Source of the DNA: Candidatus Bathyarchaeota archaeon | GTDB lineage: Archaea > Thermoproteota > Bathyarchaeia > Bathyarchaeales > Bathycorpusculaceae | Length of the DNA: 64,000 nt | Direction: 5' to 3' | NCBI GenBank assembly: GCA_963715865.1 | Contig: OY970280.1 | Span: 1,662,486-1,726,485 of the forward strand | Shown: piece by piece, positions 12,550 to 44,012 of the stretch | How the letters are laid out: each line of letters starts with the position of its first letter | Numbering within the stretch: the stretch's first letter is position 1 | The notes under the pieces: model-generated | What the model was told of the DNA's origin: nothing | Seen by the model: only the letters and a program-made list of their open reading frames with translations | Databases searched by the model: none | Made by a program: the position numbers and the translations under genes

Positions 12550-12658
12550 TGGTGCCGGGGGCGGGATTCGAGCCCGCGACTTCTGGGTATAAGGCGCTTG
12601 CCCCTATGACTCTCCAGATTATGAGTCTGGCGCCCTAGCCAGGCTGGGCTACCCCGGC
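12550..12658 (-). tRNA. tRNA-Met(CAT) with encoded CCA and a 31-nt intron (12581-12611) at non-canonical position 45/46
   Basis: GCCGGGG acceptor, anticodon arm CCAGA-CTCATAA-TCTGG, T-arm GCGGG-CTCGAAT-CCCGC; bulge-helix-bulge with central helix CTGG/CCAG; splicing restores variable loop AGGTC. Confidence 0.92.
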
Positions 12659-14828: not shown

Positions 14829-15983
14829 ATGACCACCCCAGACATAATTGAAAAAATTCTCGCGAAAAACCCAGAAGTTAGCCGAGAACAAATTCTCGAA
14901 AAATTGCGAGCTGAAAAATCCAGAACAGGCGGTCTACTCGGTGATGAAACGCTTCTGAGGTTAATTGCCGCTAAATACGGCGTTGAAGTGCAGCAAAACA
15001 CAATTCAAAACAACGGAAACTTATCGACAAGCCGTTTATTCGCTGGCTTAAACGATGTTACAGTAGCGGGTCGCTTAATTGCGGTTTTTCCAGCGCGAAC
15101 TTTCGAGGGAGAAAAATCTGGTAAATTCGCAACTTTAATGGTCGCAGATAACGATGGCATTCTGCGGGTGGTGCTGTGGAATGACAAGGCTGATTTGGTT
15201 GAAAAGGGCGAGATGAAAGTTGGACAGGCAGTTCGGCTGCTTCATGGGTACACGCGAGAGGATCATTATGGCAAAGTAGAGTTGCATCTTGGCGGCAAAA
15301 GCCAAATTGAAGTTGAGCCCCAAGAGAAAACAAGTGAATACTTAGCCTTCGATAAGTTTGCTACAAAAATAGGTTCTCTAAATAAAACGTCTGGGAATGT
15401 GCATCTTTCTGGCACTGTAAAAGCGGTTTTAGGCTTAACCAAGTTCACCCGAAGTGATCAAAGCGATGGAACAGTCATGCGATTCACTTTAGCGGATGAT
15501 TCTGGAGAAGTGACGGCGGTTGCTTGGAATGAAAAAGCCTTAGAGTTAGAAAAAACCCTCAAAGCGAACGCGTATTTGCAATTGGGTAACGCTAAAGTGA
15601 AAGAAGCCCAAAATGGCGGCATAGAAGTTCACGTTGACTTCACCAGTTTTGTTAATGTTCAAGCTGCCGCTTTGCAGTTGACGAAAATAGCAAGCTTAAC
15701 TGAGAACCAAAGCGCCAACGTTGAAGGCGTAGTTTCAACGGTTCCTGAAAGCAAAGAAGTAACCACAGCGAAAGGCGAAACCGTGAAGCTGACGGTTTTT
15801 GGGTTAAAAGACGACTCTGGCGCTGTTCAGGTTTCGGCTTGGCGGCAACATGCTGAAGCGCTTAATGGGTTAAAGGTTGGTGACAAGTTGCTTTTGGAAA
15901 ATGCTTATGTGAAAAAGGGGTTTGGGAATAAAATGGAGCTATCTACCCGAAGTGCAACGGTTGTCTCAGTTATGCCGCCTTGA
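14829..15983 (+). CDS. Replication protein A-like multi-OB-fold ssDNA-binding protein (start MTTPDII)
   Basis: Three OB repeats (ADNDGILRVVLWN, LADDSGEVTAVAWN, LKDDSGAVQVSAW). Confidence 0.85.
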   Translation: MTTPDIIEKILAKNPEVSREQILEKLRAEKSRTGGLLGDETLLRLIAAKYGVEVQQNTIQNNGNLSTSRLFAGLNDVTVAGRLIAVFPARTFEGEKSGKFATLMVADNDGILRVVLWNDKADLVEKGEMKVGQAVRLLHGYTREDHYGKVELHLGGKSQIEVEPQEKTSEYLAFDKFATKIGSLNKTSGNVHLSGTVKAVLGLTKFTRSDQSDGTVMRFTLADDSGEVTAVAWNEKALELEKTLKANAYLQLGNAKVKEAQNGGIEVHVDFTSFVNVQAAALQLTKIASLTENQSANVEGVVSTVPESKEVTTAKGETVKLTVFGLKDDSGAVQVSAWRQHAEALNGLKVGDKLLLENAYVKKGFGNKMELSTRSATVVSVMPP

Positions 15984-16995
15984 GTTTTGCCGCTATGGCG
16001 TTTGCCATGTCGCTGGTTGATGCTGAACCGCCTAAATCTGCCGTTCTCACCTTGCCTTCGTTTAGCACGCTTATCACTGCTTTTTCGATTTTAGCTGCGC
16101 CTGCTTTTTCGCCAAGGTAATCCAGCATCATTGAGCCTGCCATAATGGTGGCTATGGGATTAACCCTGTTCATACCCGTGTATTTGGGCGCTGAACCGTG
16201 GACAGGCTCAAACATGCCGTATGTTTCGCCGATGTTTGCTCCTGCCGCTAAGCCTAAACTTCCCGTAACCTGCGCCGCCTCATCCGAAAGTATGTCGCCG
16301 AAAAGGTTAGTTGTAACAATCACATCGTAGGCTTCGGGCTTTTTAATTAGTTGCATGGTTGCAGCATCAATGTGCAAGTCATCAACGGTCACGTCAGGAT
16401 ACTTTTGCTGGGCTTCTTTAACGGCGTCTTTGAAGATGCCATCGGTTATTCTTAGAATGTTGCCTTTGTGCACGTAGGTTAAGTGTTTTCTGCGCTGAGA
16501 AGCAAGCTTAAACGCGAAATTGGCTATTTTCAATGAAGCTTCCCTTGTGATTATTCTTAGGGCTATGCCGACGCCTGGAGCAAGGAGAGATTCTGCGCCC
16601 GAGTATAAGCCTTCTGTATTCTCGCGGACAACGACTAAGTCTATGTTTGGTTTTAAGGCTTCAACGCTTGGAAAGCTTCGGCATGGACGCACGTTTGCAT
16701 AGAGATTGAAAATTTTGCGGAGTGTCACGGCTACGCTTACTGGTGCACCTGGCTCTTCAGGCGTAGTCATTGGTCCTTTCAGGCAAGCGCTGGTTTGCTT
16801 TATCAGCTCTAGTGTTTCTTTGGGCAGGTTGGTGCCGTATTGGGCTATGCAGTGGTATCCTGCTTCGCCGTAAAGAAAGTTAAGTTTGAAATGTGATTTT
16901 TCTTGGATAGCTTGGAGGACTTTTACGGTTGCTTCTGTTACTTCTGGTCCGATGCCGTCGCCTTTAAGGACGGCTATGTTGTAAGTTTTAGTCAT
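15970..16995 (-). CDS. Isocitrate/isopropylmalate dehydrogenase family (LeuB-like)
   Basis: GDGIGPEV, VRENTEGLY, NLFGDILSD, EPVHGSAP, NPIA. Confidence 0.9.
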   Translation of the reverse strand: MTKTYNIAVLKGDGIGPEVTEATVKVLQAIQEKSHFKLNFLYGEAGYHCIAQYGTNLPKETLELIKQTSACLKGPMTTPEEPGAPVSVAVTLRKIFNLYANVRPCRSFPSVEALKPNIDLVVVRENTEGLYSGAESLLAPGVGIALRIITREASLKIANFAFKLASQRRKHLTYVHKGNILRITDGIFKDAVKEAQQKYPDVTVDDLHIDAATMQLIKKPEAYDVIVTTNLFGDILSDEAAQVTGSLGLAAGANIGETYGMFEPVHGSAPKYTGMNRVNPIATIMAGSMMLDYLGEKAGAAKIEKAVISVLNEGKVRTADLGGSASTSDMANAIAAKLKAA

Positions 16996-17082
16996 TTTGG
17001 TTGCCTTCTTGTTTCTGGTTTTGTAAATAGTGTTTTTGCTTATCAGCATTCCTGTTGACTTTTTCCTAAAAATGAAGTTTCA

Positions 17083-17593: not shown

Positions 17594-18951
17594 TTATGAA
17601 TTATAATTACTTATCCCTATAGTTTGGGACTTATTATCCATATTTTTGAAGCTTCCGAAGCGTTTAGGCTTCCTGTAGAAATGCATCGTAATTCCGTTGA
17701 ATGTAGCTTCATCATATTTTGTCCAGCCAGCCTTTCCTAAAGCACGAATCTCTTCAACTGTTGTTACAACGGTTTCCTCATAATCTTCCTCTTTGAACTC
17801 GATAGTATGCACATATTTCTGCGTGCTCTTCCACGACTTATGCCTCAGCAATCTTGCGATAACAACAGCATTCCCATTCGAATAGTACGCTATCATAGAG
17901 CCGCCCCAATGACGGAACGATTTAAAACTGATCTGTAGCAATGCAGGATTCTGGAATTTTGCGGCAGCCTTTACGACGAAGCGCTGCAAGGCATACATAA
18001 GCAGTCCGATAGGTCATTGGAAAAATCCGTTTGTTTTCCCTAGGCAAAGCATTCAACATGCAGGTCAAACGCATCGACAACTCGTATTTACCAGGGTAAT
18101 GGAACTTCACTGGATGATTAATACTGAACACATTATCCTTGAGGTCAATCCATTCAGCATCAAGAATCTCTGACGGATCAGCAAAAGTCTCTTTAAGGCA
18201 CAGCAGAAAAGTAGCCATACGCTTACTCGCAGCACTAATAAGCAAATCAAGGTCTTTCTCATCAGGCACAATGATAGTAGCTTCCCTCTGACGATACAGC
18301 GGACGCTGCCAAACAATCCCCTCCATCTGACAAAACGCATCATAAGCACACACCGCCAGCATTTTCATACTGTCACTCCAAGGCTCACCATTCTTCTTTT
18401 TCTGCTTAGCAATTACCATCTTCACATTTTCAGAGTCCAACAGGTCAGCGCCATCACCGACAAGATGCGTCAGAATATCAGGGTACGTTATATCTTCATC
18501 AAAACCATTACGCTCCAAGTACGCCATGAATTTTGTAATCAAGCCACGCACAGCTTCAGGTAACAGGTCCAGATGCTTCAGTTTTCTTCTTGTCTCCCGC
18601 AACAGTCTTTAATTCTGCTGCAGAGGTCAAATTTTTCGCTCCCAAAGCGCATATTTGGCGTTTAGAAGCTAAGGCACTGGACGTATTTAATGACCTTTCA
18701 GAACTTTCTTGTAACGGTGGTGACCCTTTAAGGGTCGGTCTCTCGCTAAAACGGAATCCGCAATCCCTGCAAAGCCAACGCTGAACACTAGATTTATCAC
18801 TCCTATAACGCAGGCCATCACGATAAACCTTCGTCACCTTAGGACTGCAACTGGGGCATAGGGGGCTGGCGCCATCACTAGCCAACTTGCCCAAACCAAC
18901 ACTGCCAAATACACGCTCTTGAGCAAGACCAACCATTCCCTCCCCAGCCAT
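17594..18951 (-). CDS. Tyrosine integrase with N-terminal IS1-like zinc ribbon, interrupted by two apparent +1 frameshifts (~18575 and ~17970)
   Basis: Three consecutive ORFs join as CPSC...QRWLCRDCGFRFS, core, then FKSFRHWGGS...LLRHKSWKSTQKY (H-x-x-R-like box, H, catalytic Y). Confidence 0.85.
17603..17616 (+). repeat. attL core ATAATTACTTATCC
   Basis: Identical to 57423-57436; lies inside the last codons of the integrase ORF. Confidence 0.75.
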
Positions 18952-19112
18952 CTTAACCCTCCGTAAATACGCGACCGTTCTCTTCAGCCAAATCCATCAA
19001 TTCTTTGCGTTTAGCAGCTTCCTTAAGGCGTCTATCACATGGTCCACAATAATTAACAAACCGAGAAACGACGTCACCGCATTCTCGGCAGTGATGATGC
19101 TCAGGGACGCCT

Positions 19113-19763
19113 TCAGCCAACAGTTTCACCTAACTCGCCTTTTGGACCTACAGAAGAATCCACGGTGACGGCGGCGCCTTCAGCGGCAGCTACTTCTTGA
19201 CCATCATAGGTGAAGCTGACAACTTCGAAAGTTCCAAACGAGCCCTTATGCTGAGGCCTATAATCCAGCAAACCCATCCGGACACCCGCATCTTCCAAAA
19301 TTTCTTTCAGCGTAGCCTCGATGCCTTCAGGCAGCCACTTAACATTATAGACAAGCCTAAACTTTGCACTCCATTGCAATAGTTTCGCTCTGCCTTTAAG
19401 AACCCGCTGCGACTGAATCACAACCGCCCGCTCATCAACCACGTACTGATCCGTACCCAAAGGAATCTTCTCAGGCTCCACACGCATCGTACCAGCAAGC
19501 AAACTCGAAAGCGAAACCCTATGAACCCTGTACTGCTTAGCCGTATTGATAAGCATGCTCTGCACGCATTCCTGAGGAATGTAAAGCTGGTTTTTGCCGT
19601 TGATCACTGCCATGTAAGCGCTGTTCTTTGCATCGTTCTCTGTACTATAGTTCTGCGTCTTCATTTTACTTTTACTTTTCAAACTTTCCGGATTCAACCG
19701 GTTCATTAGCAAGGGCGTTAAGCCCTTAATTTCAACATCTATTTTTTTAAAGTTTTGACTCAT
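19113..19763 (-). CDS. Virus-encoded RAMP/Cas7-like protein, candidate effector of the adjacent repeat array
   Basis: N-terminal IKGLTPLLM, YIPQECVQSML, WSAKFRL and glycine-rich C-terminal AGVRMGLLDYRPQHKGSFGTFEV, the pattern of RAMP/Cas7-group folds; no other cas genes nearby. Confidence 0.7.
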   Translation of the reverse strand: MSQNFKKIDVEIKGLTPLLMNRLNPESLKSKSKMKTQNYSTENDAKNSAYMAVINGKNQLYIPQECVQSMLINTAKQYRVHRVSLSSLLAGTMRVEPEKIPLGTDQYVVDERAVVIQSQRVLKGRAKLLQWSAKFRLVYNVKWLPEGIEATLKEILEDAGVRMGLLDYRPQHKGSFGTFEVVSFTYDGQEVAAAEGAAVTVDSSVGPKGELGETVG

Positions 19764-19768
19764 TTTTG

Positions 19769-20795
19769 TAACCTCACGTTACCATACCTGAGAGCACTGT
19801 AGCTAACGGCGCCCCGCCTTCCCTCACTAAACCAAAATAGCGGCTTACCATGCCTCACAATACATCGCATCACCAAGCCAGGCATCACTGAACTCAACCT
19901 AACTGGACACCGCAAAACATGACCTAACCGCGATGATACCAAGGAATACCACGCATTACGCGACAGGACAGTACCAAGCCAAACTTGACCCCGCCTTAAT
20001 AACGCCAAAGAACACTTCGCCTTGCTGTACCTCACCACTGCTAACCACAATGAAAGCAAAGATTGCAGCAACCGTGCCAAACCGCAACTCACAAAACCCC
20101 GCTTGACATTGCCAAACCTCAATAAAACCATGCCAAGCCTTGCATAACCGTACTTCACAGGACCAAACTTCGCCACGCCGTAGAGTGCCTCGCGACTCCA
20201 AGCCACGCAACGCCGTAATAACGCCAAACCATGCAAAACCATACCGTGCAGTACACCAACCCGCTCCACGATACCAAACAGGGCCTCTCCAAACCACGAT
20301 AACACTTTACCACACAAAACCAAGCCCCGCACCACAGATCCCCACGCAACGCAACAGGACCTCGCTAAGCCACAATAGCACCTAACCGTAGAGAACAAAG
20401 CACCACTTGACCCAACAGAACCGGACTCCACTCCGCTACACCATAATAAAAGCTTGGCTTGCCTTGCTTCACCCAACCGGACCGTTCCCTGCCATAATGA
20501 AAGCTTAGAGAAACTATCCTCGCAAAGCCGTACCTTACGATACCTAACCGGACAGGACAGAATAGTGCCATGCAATACTAAACCTCGCAACGCCTCAATA
20601 ATAGCAAACCTAGCAAACCTTACTTTACTCAACCTAGCAGTACAGGGCCTCACAAGACCTAGAAACACAAGACCAGACCTAAGAATACACTGCCGGGCAC
20701 CACTACACACCACAGGACCATACCTGACATCAATAGCGCCACACCTTACCTTAGAGGACCGGGCAACACCGCATCTTACCCCACGACACTTGACC
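19769..20795 (-). ncRNA. Array of ~178 pentamers (NGY-NN) in ~13 blocks split by GYTATT-like spacers; candidate guide-RNA array
   Basis: 5-nt periodicity seen directly (e.g. GGT-CA AGT-GT CGT-GG GGT-AA GAT-GC GGT-GT); separators GCTATTGA, GCTTTCATTAT, GTTATCGT, GTTATTAC, GTTATTAA, GCTATTTT; sits between a stop codon and the RAMP ATG. Confidence 0.8.
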
Positions 20796-21548
20796 CTAAA
20801 CATGAAAACGCAACCTCTCAAAATCCAAATGCGCCCGATTAACCAACTCTTTAATGACAGGATCATCCAGCGGAAAACGCCCCGACTCCGCCAGACTACA
20901 AAACAGCACCAAAGCGTTCTTCAGCTCCACAAGCTCACGGCCACTCAAACCAGGCTGAACCTTCCCATTCTTGGAATCCACATGAAACCGCTTGCCGCAT
21001 GGCGCCGTCAAAGTCACAATAGGCGCAGCAGACTCACGGTAAATCTCAGCAGCCGGAACATGCACAAGCGCCACGATATCTTTCACGTCAAATTTGAACT
21101 TTTTAAGCCGAGCAATGTTATCCTTAAGCTCCACGTCGCTGAAACCCTTGCCATGGCCACTATTAAGCCTCACCGCCTCAGCAAACAACTCAGCCTCACT
21201 AGAAAACGGCAACTCAGAACATTCCGCATACTCAACCTTGCGAAGCTTCCGAGAACTAAACCGATGAACACCATCAACAAGAATCTTCTGACCCTTGAAA
21301 ACGCCAACCTTCAAAGTTGGAAAAACACAACCCGCATCCAAAGCCCTGGCATAATTTTCAACAACCCTCTGATCAATCTCCTTACGCGGATAAAGACTCC
21401 AATCAAAAACCAGATCAGCAAGCTTCTCAATACGAACTGGCGCCCTATCCCAATCCTTAAACGCAAAACCAGCAGCTGGCTTAACCTCAACGCTCTTTTG
21501 CGGAGCAGGCGGCATATAAACAACTTTACCAGCAACAGGAGACTTCAA
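20796..21548 (-). CDS. ParB/Srx N-terminal-domain protein
   Basis: LYPRKEID, ILVDGVHRF, AVRLNSGHG. Confidence 0.8.
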   Translation of the reverse strand: MKSPVAGKVVYMPPAPQKSVEVKPAAGFAFKDWDRAPVRIEKLADLVFDWSLYPRKEIDQRVVENYARALDAGCVFPTLKVGVFKGQKILVDGVHRFSSRKLRKVEYAECSELPFSSEAELFAEAVRLNSGHGKGFSDVELKDNIARLKKFKFDVKDIVALVHVPAAEIYRESAAPIVTLTAPCGKRFHVDSKNGKVQPGLSGRELVELKNALVLFCSLAESGRFPLDDPVIKELVNRAHLDFERLRFHV

Positions 21549-21757
21549 CTAGACGCCTCCAGCTTTGGCTTTTTCAACGGTATAAAAACAACCGGGTGCT
21601 TATCCAACCGACTAAAAATACACCTGTAACCCTCAGCTTCAAGGGCAGTCTTCCAAGCAGCATCGAACTCTGGCTTCTGAATAACTAGGCACTCTCCATA
21701 CGGCGTCACATCTTTAGGCGGACCAAAACGCGACTTAAGCTCATCAACCGAAACCAT
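21545..21757 (-). CDS. Viral hypothetical protein
   Basis: Overlapping stop/start with the ParB-like gene, operon strand. Confidence 0.55.
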   Translation of the reverse strand: MVSVDELKSRFGPPKDVTPYGECLVIQKPEFDAAWKTALEAEGYRCIFSRLDKHPVVFIPLKKPKLEASS

Positions 21758-22326: not shown

Positions 22327-22557
22327 TCATTTCTCAGGTCCCTCTATGATTTTGTCTAGTTTCTTCTGAGCGTAAGCTTCAATCCTGACAGTAACATTAT
22401 GCCCTAACGGGTACTCCTGGTACAGTGCGGAACTCTCGCTCTTAATAGACAACTTCATTTTCGGGTCACTGCATTCCAGCGTAACCTTGAACACTGGCAA
22501 TTCAGCGGCGTTCTGGCTTTTCGTATGACTGCGTACAATCATGTCATATTCAGTCAA
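22327..22557 (-). CDS. Viral hypothetical protein
   Basis: Coupled to the upstream ORF. Confidence 0.6.
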   Translation of the reverse strand: MTEYDMIVRSHTKSQNAAELPVFKVTLECSDPKMKLSIKSESSALYQEYPLGHNVTVRIEAYAQKKLDKIIEGPEK

Positions 22558-23410
22558 GCTTCTTCACCTCTGTTTTTCTCGGTTTATTTTGTAAGCGATA
22601 GAACTCTCTGATTTTTTCAAAGATTACATTACGCAACTTGGCATCGACAGCATCGCGCTCAGGCTTCCACTTGGCATCGACAGCATCGAGCTCAGCGTTC
22701 CACTTGGCATAGACAGCATCGCGCTCAGGCTTCCACTTGGCATCGACAGCATCGCGCTCAGGCTTCCACTTGGCATCGACAGCATCGCGCTCAGGCTTCC
22801 ACTTGGCATAGACAGCATCGCGCTCAGCGTTCCACTTGGCATAGACAGCATCGCGCTCAGGCTTCCACTTGGCATCGACAGCATCGAGCTCAGCGTTCCA
22901 CTTGGCATAGACAGCATCGCGCTCAGCGTTCCACTTGGCATAGACAGCATCGCGCTCAGGCTTCCACTTGGCATAGACAGCATCGAGCTCAGCGTTCCAC
23001 TTGGCATAGACAGCATCGAGCTCAGGCTTCCACTTGGCATCGACAGCATCGAGCTCAGCGTTCCACTTGGCATAGACAGCATCGAGTTCAGCGTAATATC
23101 TCAACAAAAGCTCTTTTGAAATGCCGTTAGGATCTTGATTCTTTAGCAACCGCACAGATCGACAAACACATTTCTTGTTCTCATCACTCCAAGCCTCAAT
23201 TCCATAAGCCTCAGCGAAAAACACTTGACAATCAGAGTTAAGCCAGTCCCGTGGGTCCATCGTTAAATGAAAACCCCGACTGCACATCGACAAATTGCCT
23301 TTCACAATATATTTCTTGCCAAGCTTCCAGGTCTGATGACCACCGTTGTAGCTCTGCATGTTCCGCAGGACTTTGAAAAGAATCACAGGTTTTTCTTTTT
23401 TATCAGTCAT
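22550..23410 (-). CDS. Viral protein with N-terminal C..GFH domain and ~14 x 11-aa helical repeats
   Basis: GNLSMCSRGFHL domain followed by repeats DAV(Y/D)AKW(NA/KP)E(L/R). Confidence 0.75.
   Translation of the reverse strand: MTDKKEKPVILFKVLRNMQSYNGGHQTWKLGKKYIVKGNLSMCSRGFHLTMDPRDWLNSDCQVFFAEAYGIEAWSDENKKCVCRSVRLLKNQDPNGISKELLLRYYAELDAVYAKWNAELDAVDAKWKPELDAVYAKWNAELDAVYAKWKPERDAVYAKWNAERDAVYAKWNAELDAVDAKWKPERDAVYAKWNAERDAVYAKWKPERDAVDAKWKPERDAVDAKWKPERDAVYAKWNAELDAVDAKWKPERDAVDAKLRNVIFEKIREFYRLQNKPRKTEVKKLD
22637..23093. repeat. 33-bp tandem repeat, ~14 copies, coding
   Basis: Unit cttggcat(c/a)gacagcatcg(c/a)gctcag(gc/cg)ttcca seen directly. Confidence 0.95.
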
Positions 23411-31680: not shown

Positions 31681-32649
31681 CTAAGGCTGGCTAAGCGGGA
31701 ACCCGTTTCTCCGCAAATTACTCAACACGCGATTCGTAAGCTTATCAGCATCATAATTACTAGCGAACGTGCTACCTCTCGCGTCAACACTTATGCTCAT
31801 CGCGTTATTGCGAGTTTCAGACGCAGTTTGAACAGATTCGCCCTGGTGCAGCTGGTACATGCCCGTTTCAGCAACGTAGTTAGTTTCAGACGCAGTTTGA
31901 ACAGATTCGCCCTGGTGCAGCTGGTACATGCCCGTTTCAGCAACGTAGTTAGTGCCAAACTGATGACTACCCAAGCTTTCATACGCAACAATGCCGGCGA
32001 CAGCAGCAGCGCCAGCAAGCATAAACGGAACAGCAGCACCCATCGAAGACACTGCATTCGCAATAAAAGATGCGGCTGCCCGAGCGTACTCAGCGATTGA
32101 TGCTGCAATACTACTAGCCGTTATCGCGGCTATAGCAGCTGCGAAGGCTCCACTCACGGCGGCGCCGACAGTTGAAATAGCCGAGGTAAAAGCGGTTGCA
32201 GCGCCCCGAGCATTCTCCGCAATCGCCGCAGCAATACTACTACTTGTGATAGCAGCTATGGCGCCTGCGAATGCACCGCTAACAGCAGCCCCAACACTTG
32301 AGACCGCTGTTGTAAATGTGGTTGCAGCAGCACGCGCGTTCTCAGCAATAGTAGCCGCAGTTTCAGCCGACGTCAAAACCGAAAGAGCCGCCGAAAAATC
32401 GCGGATAATGCTAATTACGCTCATGGCTGCGCCGACAGCTTCAAACGCAGCAGCCATCTGCTTCAACGTAGTGTTATTCAAGCCAAGCAAAGTGTTCAAG
32501 CGCATGATGCTTGTGCCAGCACGGCTAAAATCCATAGCTAAGCCGCGAACGCTCAAGCTAACGCCTGAAATGTTACCCGTAACCTCGTCAGTTGTAGCTT
32601 TCACCAAGTTACGGCCAGTAAACGTGAAAACTACTTCATGCTCACTCAA
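31681..32649 (-). CDS. Tape measure protein (short, 322 aa)
   Basis: Ala-rich helical repeats; C-terminal HQFGTNYVAETG..LHQGESV motif; follows the TAC and gp10-like genes. Confidence 0.75.
   Translation of the reverse strand: MSEHEVVFTFTGRNLVKATTDEVTGNISGVSLSVRGLAMDFSRAGTSIMRLNTLLGLNNTTLKQMAAAFEAVGAAMSVISIIRDFSAALSVLTSAETAATIAENARAAATTFTTAVSSVGAAVSGAFAGAIAAITSSSIAAAIAENARGAATAFTSAISTVGAAVSGAFAAAIAAITASSIAASIAEYARAAASFIANAVSSMGAAVPFMLAGAAAVAGIVAYESLGSHQFGTNYVAETGMYQLHQGESVQTASETNYVAETGMYQLHQGESVQTASETRNNAMSISVDARGSTFASNYDADKLTNRVLSNLRRNGFPLSQP
31813..31950. repeat. Exact 69-bp tandem duplication in the TMP
   Basis: NYVAETGMYQLHQGESVQTASET encoded twice with identical DNA. Confidence 0.9.
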
Positions 32650-42170: not shown

Positions 42171-44012
42171 TTATACGCCATGAAAGTTATCTGCGCTGAA
42201 ACGAGCAGCCGCCTTTCCATAAAGCAAATTCAAATTATTACCTAGAAACACGTATTTCGCTAAGAAACTTGTTGTTGGGTCACCTGCCAGAACGTAGCCT
42301 TGACCGCTGTTAACTGCGACGCCTCCAAGGTAAACCATGTTTGACAGCGCCAAGGAAAGGTCTGCCCGTTTACACGCTACCGATGGAAACTGAGTGCCGC
42401 TTGTGCCGACTAAAATTATGTTTCCTGTTACGGAACCATAAGCCTGCGAGTAATCATTGCAAATTTGCCCTGACATAGTCGCTGTGATTTGCGTAACAAC
42501 TGCACCTGAAAGCACCGTTACTATACTTCCAGATAACACAGTTATAGCGCCACTAATCGAAACGATGTTTCCTGAAACATTAGCGACAACGTTTGCTGAT
42601 GCGATGTTAGCCATTGTGCCTGAAGCTAAACTGACAGTTTGACCTGAAATTAACACGCCGACTCCAGAGGCAACGAACAATCCTGATAAAGTTGCAGTCG
42701 GCAAAGAAATGAATTGCCCTGACAGCGTAGCGACGGGTTGTTGAACGAACGCTCCTGAAGCAACCGCCACCATTTGCCCGCTAATCAATACACCTACACC
42801 TGACCCAACAGTGACAGCTAATCCAGATGCAACCACTAGTCCAGATTGAGTAGAAACAGGCAAAGATATGCTAAGTCCAGAAGCTAAATAGGCACCTGAA
42901 GCAACCGAAACAGTTTGACCGCTAATTAAAACGCCTAAGCCTGAATTAACGGATACTGAAGCGTTAACGTATAGTCCTGACGCAACCTGAACTGTTTGCC
43001 CAGAAATTAAAACTCCAAGCCCTGAGTTTACCGAAACAGCAGCATTAACGTATAATCCAGATGCAAGATAAACGCCTGAGCCAACAGCAACTGTTTGTCC
43101 ACTGATTAACACGCCGAGTCCAGAGTTGATGGAAACTGCCGCGTTCACGTAGGACCCTGAAGCGACTGTTACAATGTTTCCACTTACATTAACAGCATTA
43201 CCAGAAATAGACGTTGAGGGCACAGTTACGTTCAAACCCGATGCAACAACCAATCCCGAAAGAGTGGCTGTTGGCACTCTTACGTTTGCGCCTGACGCAA
43301 CCTGAACTGTTTGCCCAGAAATTAAAACTCCAAGCCCTGAGTTTACCGAAACAGCAGCATTAACGTATAATCCAGATGCAAGATAAACGCCTGAGCCAAC
43401 AGCAACTGTTTGTCCACTGATTAACACGCCGAGTCCAGAGTTGATGGAAACTGCCGCGTTCACGTAGGACCCTGAAGCGACTGTTACAATGTTTCCACTT
43501 ACATTAACAGCATTACCAGAAATAGACGTTGAGGGCACAGTTACGTTCAAACCCGATGCAACAACCAATCCCGAAAGAGTGGCTGTTGGTAGACTAATAA
43601 ATTGCCCAGACTGTGTTGAAACGGGTAATGCAACGTTTAATCCTGATGCTAAGTAGCCGCCTGAAGTTAAAGTAACGTTTTGTCCACTGACTTGAACGAT
43701 GTTTCCGCTGACAGATGTTTGGACTGTTCCGCTGACTATGACGGCGCCGCTGACCTGTCCGCCTTGATTTGCTACTGTGACGATTTGACCGCTAACAGCA
43801 ACAACATTACCGCTTACTGATGTACCGACAATTTGCCCAGAGACCTGCACGATTGCACCTGAAACCGCTGGACTAACAATATTTCCCTGTCCATCCTGAA
43901 CAGCAACAACTTCAGATTGCACATTACTGGTGCCTACTGTATTCTGGATTGTGCGCATTAAGACGCCGCTTGTAGGCTGCGCACCAATTTGAATCCTAGT
44001 GTCTATGCTCAT
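42171..44012 (-). CDS. 613-aa repetitive Val/Ser/Gly-rich virion fibre/spike candidate
   Basis: Dozens of xSG(Q/N/L) turns; 105-aa internal duplication; follows the MCP. Confidence 0.6.
   Translation of the reverse strand: MSIDTRIQIGAQPTSGVLMRTIQNTVGTSNVQSEVVAVQDGQGNIVSPAVSGAIVQVSGQIVGTSVSGNVVAVSGQIVTVANQGGQVSGAVIVSGTVQTSVSGNIVQVSGQNVTLTSGGYLASGLNVALPVSTQSGQFISLPTATLSGLVVASGLNVTVPSTSISGNAVNVSGNIVTVASGSYVNAAVSINSGLGVLISGQTVAVGSGVYLASGLYVNAAVSVNSGLGVLISGQTVQVASGANVRVPTATLSGLVVASGLNVTVPSTSISGNAVNVSGNIVTVASGSYVNAAVSINSGLGVLISGQTVAVGSGVYLASGLYVNAAVSVNSGLGVLISGQTVQVASGLYVNASVSVNSGLGVLISGQTVSVASGAYLASGLSISLPVSTQSGLVVASGLAVTVGSGVGVLISGQMVAVASGAFVQQPVATLSGQFISLPTATLSGLFVASGVGVLISGQTVSLASGTMANIASANVVANVSGNIVSISGAITVLSGSIVTVLSGAVVTQITATMSGQICNDYSQAYGSVTGNIILVGTSGTQFPSVACKRADLSLALSNMVYLGGVAVNSGQGYVLAGDPTTSFLAKYVFLGNNLNLLYGKAAARFSADNFHGV
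42976..43589. repeat. Two identical 299-bp direct repeats (42976-43274 and 43291-43589), period 315 bp
   Basis: Direct comparison of both copies. Confidence 0.88.

Follow-up and report, generated by a model that had tools for sequence, protein, structure and literature searches.

What is encoded by a kilobase of degenerate five-nucleotide repeats in an archaeal provirus, and how does its information change over time? The question arises from a 64,000-nucleotide stretch of a Bathyarchaeia genome (contig OY970280.1; hereafter the window), in which an initial annotation had singled out four blocks of pentamers that decoded to no recognised motif, and had left unexplained how such interleaved guides could be written. 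We conclude that the region is very probably the guide RNA (vrRNA) array of a VIPR (Viral Interference Programmable Repeat) system carried by a head-tailed Bathyarchaeia provirus, with the four blocks being four of its approximately 15 units. VIPR is a system for RNA-guided DNA silencing described in two bioRxiv preprints of 2026, whose available text presents Vipr as a stand-alone RAMP of approximately 20 kDa and reports the mechanism for the SUSP1 and P. fulva systems (10.64898/2026.04.26.720920, 10.64898/2026.04.26.720927). In the available text of the first, vrRNAs are runs of 9-16 YNNGG repeats with a conserved 3' tail, and a related consensus YNNNG is also listed. One Vipr protomer per repeat sequesters G-G-Y, and the NN bases pair with double-stranded DNA so that every third base, usually a codon wobble position, is skipped. 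Rival phages, prophages and satellites are thereby silenced at the level of transcription (10.64898/2026.04.26.720920). The initial annotation had proposed interleaved guides in which NN stands for codon positions 1 and 2, which is the same as this published one-nucleotide-skip rule (10.64898/2026.04.26.720920).

On the minus strand, the order of genes is a ParB-like gene, the array and then vipr. We assign the locus to VIPR because the profile of this downstream gene (19113..19763, minus strand; PHROG 4652) matches SUSP1 Vipr and the model of its 216-amino-acid product has a RAMP fold. A profile of 24 homologues, compared with the PDB sequences, matched one solved structure, 36pp_D 'SUSP1 Vipr protein' (E = 4.7e-6), over residues 27-187. 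The G-loop D167-Y168-R169 and R125 align with D177-W178-R179 and R138 of SUSP1, which are given as the GGY readers of its G-loop and thumb, respectively, in the available text of the structural preprint (10.64898/2026.04.26.720927). All four residues are invariant across the 24 homologues, while SUSP1 H17, which reads G1, falls outside the aligned part. An AF2 model from the same alignment reached a predicted local distance difference test (pLDDT) score of 80, and its best Foldseek matches were Csm3, Cmr4 and type VII Cas7 (E of about 1e-5, probability 1.0). All of the top 50 matches were Cas7-type RAMPs, with template modelling (TM) scores of about 0.5. The family is large, comprising 1904 clusters (50% identity, E <= 0.001) of mostly 180-200 amino acids. 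Judged by sequence and predicted fold, the product is Vipr, an ancestral RAMP that would polymerise on guide RNA; its binding is predicted by likeness to SUSP1.

The array itself spans 19764-20795 of the minus strand, approximately 1 kb composed of about 200 degenerate D-G-Y-N-N pentamers. On this strand it is rich in G (35%) and T (34%), compared to A (16%) and C (15%). Identity at a lag of five nucleotides is 0.42, followed by 0.38-0.36 at lags of 10, 15 and 20 and approximately 0.25 at the remaining lags; a 3-nt periodicity is absent from this interval by the same measure. Within the window the 5-nt signal is limited to 19764-20795, and it shows a strong strand asymmetry. Runs of ten DGYNN pentamers occur 11 times in the window, every one within the array, and not once in 100 shuffles. 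The phase-tracked composition of seven loci shows that position 1 is G (49%), T (33%) or A (14%), position 2 mostly G (86%) and position 3 T (62%) or C (34%), with nearly uniform positions 4 and 5. Joints that break the register (...G-G-Y-N-T-TATT-NN-GG..., or (N)TATT(NN)GG in short) set apart about 15 units, which we numbered U1 to U16, counting U3 and U4 jointly as U3-4. The units comprise approximately 5-18 repeats and end in G-G-Y-N-T-TATT. Paralogous units with a shared GTCCTGTCCGGTTAGG recur inside arrays. A fold of the whole array (-338 kcal/mol) was uninformative, as there was no shuffle control above 1 kb. A BLAST search of the locus against INPHARED phages gave zero matches, and a literature search for phage arrays with pentanucleotide periodicity returned only a paper on antibody switch regions.

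The NN string of at least one unit matches a real gene family. U14 (19933..20003, minus strand; NN GG CA TT TT AC CC CG AA GT AT TT AT) served as the positive control for the code. Its first ten NN, searched as an NNx string with 20 specified bases, have two exact matches in IMG/VR, both in frame on the sequence GQFFTPR(K/N)VI of N6-adenine methyltransferase-like genes. Aligned in full, U14 matches 21-22 of 24 NN bases in the two viral contigs, against a shuffled maximum of 19. U14 is also conserved in four related loci (L001, L002, L009 and L010). When all units were compared with the two methyltransferase contigs, U14 matched, U9 matched weakly and the others did not. In both contigs, U9 (20298-20376) matches best at motif I (DPxCGxGGF), which follows the U14 site by about 25 residues. 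The decoded DPxCGSGGF of U9 and GQFFTPR of U14 are what we take to be N6 HsdM-like motifs. Likewise, U10 (20219-20297) decodes to LDPFMGGGTT, presumably motif I of the beta class, a reading that was partly checked on three methyltransferase genes. We further assume that U8 (20377-20446) carries motif IV of C5 enzymes (VGGPSCQGFS), U1 (20734-20795) their motif X (QVGNAVPP), and U6 (20499-20560) the PPY of a beta-class motif IV. U14 alone is firmly tool-checked, U9 and U10 are so in part, and the readings of U1, U6 and U8 are leads. Self-targets were searched in the window and in ten related loci (L001-L010) at a match of at least 88% over nine repeats, which gave two NNx matches against 1.0 in shuffles; scans per unit gave no excess over shuffles either. 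This absence of self-targets agrees with the available text of the VIPR preprint.

Comparison with relatives shows how the guides change. Eight further distinct loci (L001, L002 and L005 to L010) carry an array directly upstream of a vipr homologue, while L004 has the same sequence as L001 in the part that was compared. The closest loci belong to metagenome-assembled genomes (MAGs) of Bathyarchaeia from peat. Unit order is collinear among the loci; units are present or absent without polarity towards a leader end, and the arrays differ in that units have been gained or lost and NN bases edited. The arrays are thus not static, and the idea that they might be identical across relatives does not hold. 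Compared to the window, the L001-type allele lacks U11 (96 nt), has 18 nt in place of 63 nt and 228 nt in place of 297 nt. Four peat and wetland metagenome runs (X12, X14, X18 and X24) carry the L001-type allele over 19100-21600 and not that of the window. In the parts that they share with the window, these alleles are approximately 90-95% identical to it; at three places, guide units are replaced. The substitution rate tracks the position in the pentamer, being 0.09 for G, 0.19 for N2, 0.28 for N1 and 0.31 for D and Y, and the rates at the NN positions are below those at the fourfold sites in vipr (0.5-0.7). The tandem duplication that had been noticed at about 20602-20619 was delimited by TRF at 20602..20620 (minus strand; GGTTTGCTA twice, 9 nt; period 9, 2.1 copies). 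It is not present in the closest relative L001, and is a window-specific event of the slippage type. As its length is a multiple of three and not of five, the pentamers fall out of register across it while the reading frame is preserved.

The initial annotation had also remarked on the lack of any visible acquisition machinery, and this observation was borne out. Pfam searches of 46 open reading frames (ORFs) of the provirus and its flanks (E <= 1e-4), and of the ten ORFs around the array (E <= 0.01), gave no match to Cas1, Cas2 or reverse transcriptase. CRISPR-type direct repeats, a Cas6-type repeat and other cas genes were not found at the locus either. Direct copying from a target would not be possible, because five guide bases correspond to three target bases. 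The pattern of change fits a model in which guides would be altered by ordinary duplication, recombination and point mutation instead of a dedicated acquisition step.

Arrays of this type appear to be widespread and architecturally varied, judging from their sequences. In a Thermococcus MAG (L003; JALTMZ010000188.1, 1930-2060), a ParB-like gene is followed by a single guide of approximately 19 GGTNN repeats, a small hairpin (CTCACC-GTTT-GGTGAG) and then vipr, the product of which is 37% identical to that of the window. Runs of at least 14 GYNNN units were found in more than 120 IMG/VR contigs (L011-L130), many with arrays of 300-1700 nt. Among these, L100 (3300-5400) combines genes for a ParB-like and a small Vipr-like protein with roughly twelve single units, set apart by AT-rich sequence resembling TATA and oligo-T, L071 (1-1100) has a GC-rich array with 30-nt conserved-repeat separators after a Vipr homologue, and L083 (1900-3100) has AGYNN repeats with TTATATCCCAAC separators. 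Further examples of arrays are found in L058 (7541-9220) and L061 (1-1600).

Within this array, the four blocks are real, and their NN strings read as they had first been given. Block 1 (20454-20493) corresponds to U7 (20447..20498, minus strand; NN AT AG AC CC TG GA AA AA AA (TT)) and has the pentamers GGCAG GGAAC GGTCC GGTTG GGTGA AGCAA GGCAA GCCAA. Including the NN after the TATT joint, it decodes to M-(S/R)-T-P-(C/W)-(D/E)-(K/N)x3, which looks like the start of a gene. This block is specific to the window: it has no orthologue, and other units of relatives resemble it only in part. The L001-type allele has different sequence in place of the 297-nt segment to which block 1 belongs. Its nine NN gave zero exact NNx matches in IMG/VR. 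Block 2 (20058-20118) is U12 (20053..20121, minus strand; NN GA TT AA CA GG TT GA GC TT AC TG...). The one-base phase slip reported for it is found as a register break after ...GGCAC GGTTG, in the degenerate 3' part, where GG is lost in four repeats of the 3' half. Block 2 occurs in L001 (91-92%), L002, L007 and L009, and its NN vary at position 5 (TT/CT/GT) and position 8 (TT/AG) with the others kept. This variation looks like the pattern expected of a coding target with Leu/Val/Phe exchange. Ten NN of block 2 have zero exact matches in IMG/VR and one chance-like match in the JGI metagenomes, which is not in an open frame and is mismatched on extension. A relaxed pattern with 17 specified bases gave four matches, one of them in an open frame, against roughly seven expected.

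Block 3 (20007-20046) is U13 (20004..20052, minus strand; NN GT TA GT GA AC AA GA GT TT GT), found in L001 (89-90%) and in part in L002, L008 and L010. Nine of its NN have two exact in-frame IMG/VR matches (YV[ED]TNDV[FL]V), a number expected by chance, in proteins of unrelated families. Block 4 (19769-19833) is the terminal unit U16 (19764..19837, minus strand; NN TT TT GA AA GG GC TA AC GC CA AT AA GA TA). Its core of seven NN (GA AA GG GC TA AC GC) is identical in the window, L002 and L005, and ten of its NN have zero exact matches in IMG/VR. The 3' end of block 4 overlaps the ribosome-binding hairpin of vipr, which we read from the sequence as GTAAC-GTGAG-GTTAC (19768..19782, minus strand). 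The hairpin contains the GAGGT Shine-Dalgarno sequence of vipr, 5 nt upstream of the ATG, and is conserved in L001, L002 and L009. The unit is swapped for 18 nt in the L001-type allele, so block 4 is dispensable and not an essential structural element. The target scans were exact-match searches that covered IMG/VR and the JGI metagenomes, as opposed to the host genome beyond the window, and the chance expectations are our own estimates from approximate collection sizes, not tool output.

Several observations weigh against a VIPR array with working guides. None of the four blocks has a convincing target in the exact NNx scans of IMG/VR and the JGI metagenomes. Even for U14, the full string of 12 NN has zero matches in the JGI metagenomes, and the natural target element is therefore not in hand. 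The first G of GGY is relaxed to G/T/A, the repeat number per unit ranges from approximately 5 to 18 with only a TATT-like joint, and neither a long 3' tail nor a pseudoknot was seen on the units, Rfam having no match in the array. No RNA runs containing the stretch were found, so that transcription, processing and unit ends are predictions from the sequence. ParB-like genes are not named among the accessory genes in the available preprint text, in which the word 'ParB' is absent. Finally, the published VIPR model does not predict the stop-free frame described below.

The lack of targets raises the alternative that the four blocks are decayed or orphan units, fossils retained for the sake of an in-frame, transcribed array. 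Apart from the empty scans, this is suggested by the missing orthologue of block 1, the GG lost from four repeats in the 3' half of block 2, and the absence of blocks 1 and 4 from the closest relative. On the other hand, the NN strings of blocks 2 and 4 are preserved among loci that have diverged by 50-70% at the fourfold sites of vipr, and the TT/CT/GT variation in block 2 resembles Leu/Val/Phe exchange in a coding target. Moreover, exact-match scans of these collections are blind to targets with at least 80% NN match, which the available preprint text accepts (10.64898/2026.04.26.720920), and to the host genome beyond the window. We therefore regard fossilisation of the four blocks as rather unlikely, while giving it more weight than any other rival. 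Because their NN content is kept across divergent relatives, blocks 2 and 4 are probably working guides with targets missing from the scanned databases.

For the array as a VIPR system, the following mechanism is proposed. The array would be expressed and processed into guides, on which Vipr protomers would bind one pentamer each and sequester G-G-Y. The two N bases left free in each pentamer would then pair with double-stranded DNA in such a way that every third base of the target is skipped, and array-guided binding would silence rival mobile elements by repressing their transcription. Guides would diversify by slippage or duplication, by exchange of units between related viruses and by point mutation. 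In this clade, the units are fused head to tail, and their array is also an open frame coupled to both neighbours.

This open frame had been overlooked when the region was treated as purely non-coding. A stop-free frame extends over 19760..20803 (minus strand), giving 347 amino acids from the ATG at 20803, or 368 amino acids from 20866. The frame contains zero stops in the window, compared to 20 and 23 in the other two. In each of the nine loci, one array frame is without stops, as against 8-24 stops in every other frame, and the probability of zero stops after shuffling pentamers is at most 0.0005 per locus. The ORF starts with a Shine-Dalgarno sequence and an ATG that overlaps the stop of the ParB-like gene, and its own stop overlaps the ATG of vipr (ATGA). 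In every locus examined, the interval between the stop of the ParB-like gene and the ATG of vipr is divisible by three. The window and the L001 type differ in length at three places, by 96, 45 and 69 nt; each of these values, like the 9 nt of the duplication, is divisible by three, while only one of the four is divisible by five. The arrays of L100, L055 and L083, by contrast with these nine, are not in ORFs. The preprint's main text makes no mention of an ORF and lacks the phrase 'open reading'.

The most direct account of such a frame would be an ordinary gene for a 347-amino-acid, Gly/Val/Arg/Cys-rich repeat protein of the pentapeptide type, with the 5-nt period as a by-product. The nine stop-free frames among stop-rich alternatives, the Shine-Dalgarno sequence and ATG, and the overlapping stop and start codons shared with both neighbours are all in line with it; the ORF is called by gene callers, and six 'hypothetical proteins' of this kind are in the database. 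The substitution pattern contradicts this account. Rates at the three codon positions of the array are 0.22/0.22/0.21 (0.237/0.246/0.226 in long alignments), as opposed to approximately 0.2/0.15/0.5 in vipr. The invariant G is equally conserved at codon positions 3 and 1, and C/T toggles at Y occur at an equal rate at all three positions. Homologous units with approximately 80% nucleotide identity are read in different frames across loci, resulting in unrelated peptides, and the TATT joints fall in all three frames. The conceptual protein has no Pfam or PHROG family, and its AF2 model has a pLDDT of 38. The peptide of the array ORF is thus not under selection, and there is no codon-level selection. 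We consider a repeat-protein gene highly improbable as an explanation of the locus, and as the sole function a pentapeptide-repeat protein is largely ruled out by the codon-neutral rates, the frame-swapped units and the lack of a Pfam match.

Since the whole array stays open and linked to the genes on either side, ribosomes probably read through it, and we take the pattern to reflect selection for the passage of ribosomes and not for a protein. The purpose may be coupled expression of vipr or the guarding of a long U-rich transcript from premature termination. From these observations we tentatively propose a dual-role RNA, as a serious possibility that falls somewhat short of probable. One 1-kb transcript would be a precursor of approximately 15 guides and at the same time a translated ORF coupled to both neighbours, under selection only for remaining stop-free and in frame and not for its peptide. 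Ribosome transit would sustain transcription and vipr expression over the long U-rich stretch, or gate the maturation of guides. Several guides would be aimed at invariant catalytic motifs of N6, N4/N6 beta-class and C5 DNA methyltransferases. If guides act on whole protein families in this manner, an acquisition machine could be unnecessary.

The neighbouring ParB-like gene (20796..21548, minus strand) brings in another rival. It matches PHROG 1033 'ParB-like partition protein' (E = 3.4e-8), contains an LVDGVHR motif and has zero Pfam matches. Partition sites often adjoin parB, as in P1 and F, and the array could accordingly consist of parS-like iterons serving as a centromere or loading site for the ParB-like protein, or be a static structural RNA, instead of guides. 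The ParB-like gene is adjacent not only here but also to the guide units and Vipr-like gene of L100 and to the single guide and vipr of the Thermococcus locus. The strong strand asymmetry of the array speaks against iterons, as do the NN bases, which are variable, specific to each unit and turned over between relatives. Furthermore, the array is tied to a Vipr RAMP whose homologue binds this kind of RNA, U14 matches a coding motif under the one-nucleotide-skip rule, and the GC-rich array of L071, which adjoins a Vipr homologue, has no ParB-like gene within the part of the contig inspected. We give a centromere or static RNA hardly any credence. The ParB-like gene is a candidate vap (vipr-accessory) gene of presumed DNA-related role. 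A ParB centromere was dropped after the Vipr match, together with a TRAP-like ring-binding RNA, a primase-site cluster, a G-quadruplex and an R-loop analogue of switch regions.

The VIPR locus belongs to a head-tailed provirus that encodes tail tube, capsid, portal and terminase proteins and lies between leu/ilv genes of its host, a Bathyarchaeia archaeon. The host flanks include isopropylmalate dehydrogenase (15970-17049) on one side and, at 55-63 kb on the other, genes for dihydroxy-acid dehydratase and LeuA-like proteins. The provirus (approximately 17600-54000) also encodes a radical SAM/SPASM protein, a SAM methyltransferase and two family-4 glycosyltransferases, one of which also matches 'GT4-conflict'. 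An Rfam tRNA match (12553-12658, minus strand; 58.9 bits, 106 nt) is probably an intron-containing archaeal tRNA, ARAGORN reporting none there; it lies approximately 5 kb from an integrase fragment (17594-17998). Two genes upstream of the ParB-like gene, a DUF7666-containing protein (ORF 22550-23410) has an 11-residue repeat encoded by 13.8 copies of a 33-nt unit (22636-23091, minus strand; 92% matches). Two perfect duplications in provirus genes, of 315 nt (1.9 copies; 42976-43589, inside the 613-amino-acid ORF 42171-44012) and 69 nt (two copies; 31813-31953), look recent and in-frame, both being multiples of three.

VIPR, first reported in 2026, has been characterised in two bacterial systems, to which the present locus adds a well-sampled archaeal clade. 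The clade comprises nine arrays in the present set, with numerous further Vipr homologues known from peat and wetland data, and guide turnover becomes directly readable in it. The gain and loss of units and the editing of NN, with collinear order and in the absence of adaptation genes, bear on the origin of non-contiguous guides. If the stop-free frame reflects translation, guide biogenesis would be tied to translation in archaea; to our knowledge, there is no earlier case of a guide-RNA array that is also kept as an ORF. The guides at methyltransferase motifs suggest that a wobble-skipping code can hit whole protein families, which is relevant to conflicts among viruses and between viruses and hosts as well as to the design of broad-spectrum VIPR guides.

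Among known systems, pentapeptide-repeat proteins of the PF00805 type are alike in that the conceptual translation has a five-residue period (small-x-Val/Ala-x-x), but the central position is not Leu or Phe and Pfam has no match. The backbones of Class 1 CRISPR-Cas complexes (Cas7: Csm3, Cmr4) share the RAMP fold with G-loop and thumb, the use of one protomer per RNA segment of fixed length, and periodic flipped bases that interrupt pairing. Their period is 6 nt with one flipped base, whereas that of VIPR is 5 nt with three bases sequestered, and the present locus has non-contiguous guide information and lacks a repeat-spacer array, Cas1/Cas2 and a Cas6-type repeat. The likeness to VIPR itself comprises a Vipr homologue with a conserved GGY-reading G-loop, tandem pentamer guides next to vipr with the required four or more repeats and hypervariable NN, a proviral location with vipr and one accessory gene, at least one guide whose NN match codon positions 1 and 2 of a real gene family, and the typical absence of acquisition genes. 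DGYNN also falls among the 'related consensus' variants (YNNNG) in the available preprint text. Unlike in the published systems, the consensus is D-G-Y with a first G that is G in only 49%, the accessory gene is separated from vipr by approximately 15 units, and these are fused head to tail through a TATT-like joint with no visible tail or pseudoknot, which may represent the 'staggered' overlapping architecture of figure S18 in the preprint. The array also differs in lying wholly within a conserved stop-free frame, in its ParB-like accessory gene and in its Bathyarchaeia host. The kind of system is thus already known as VIPR, and the locus is a variant of it with a relaxed first G, head-to-tail units, a ParB-like partner, an archaeal host and, above all, the open frame.

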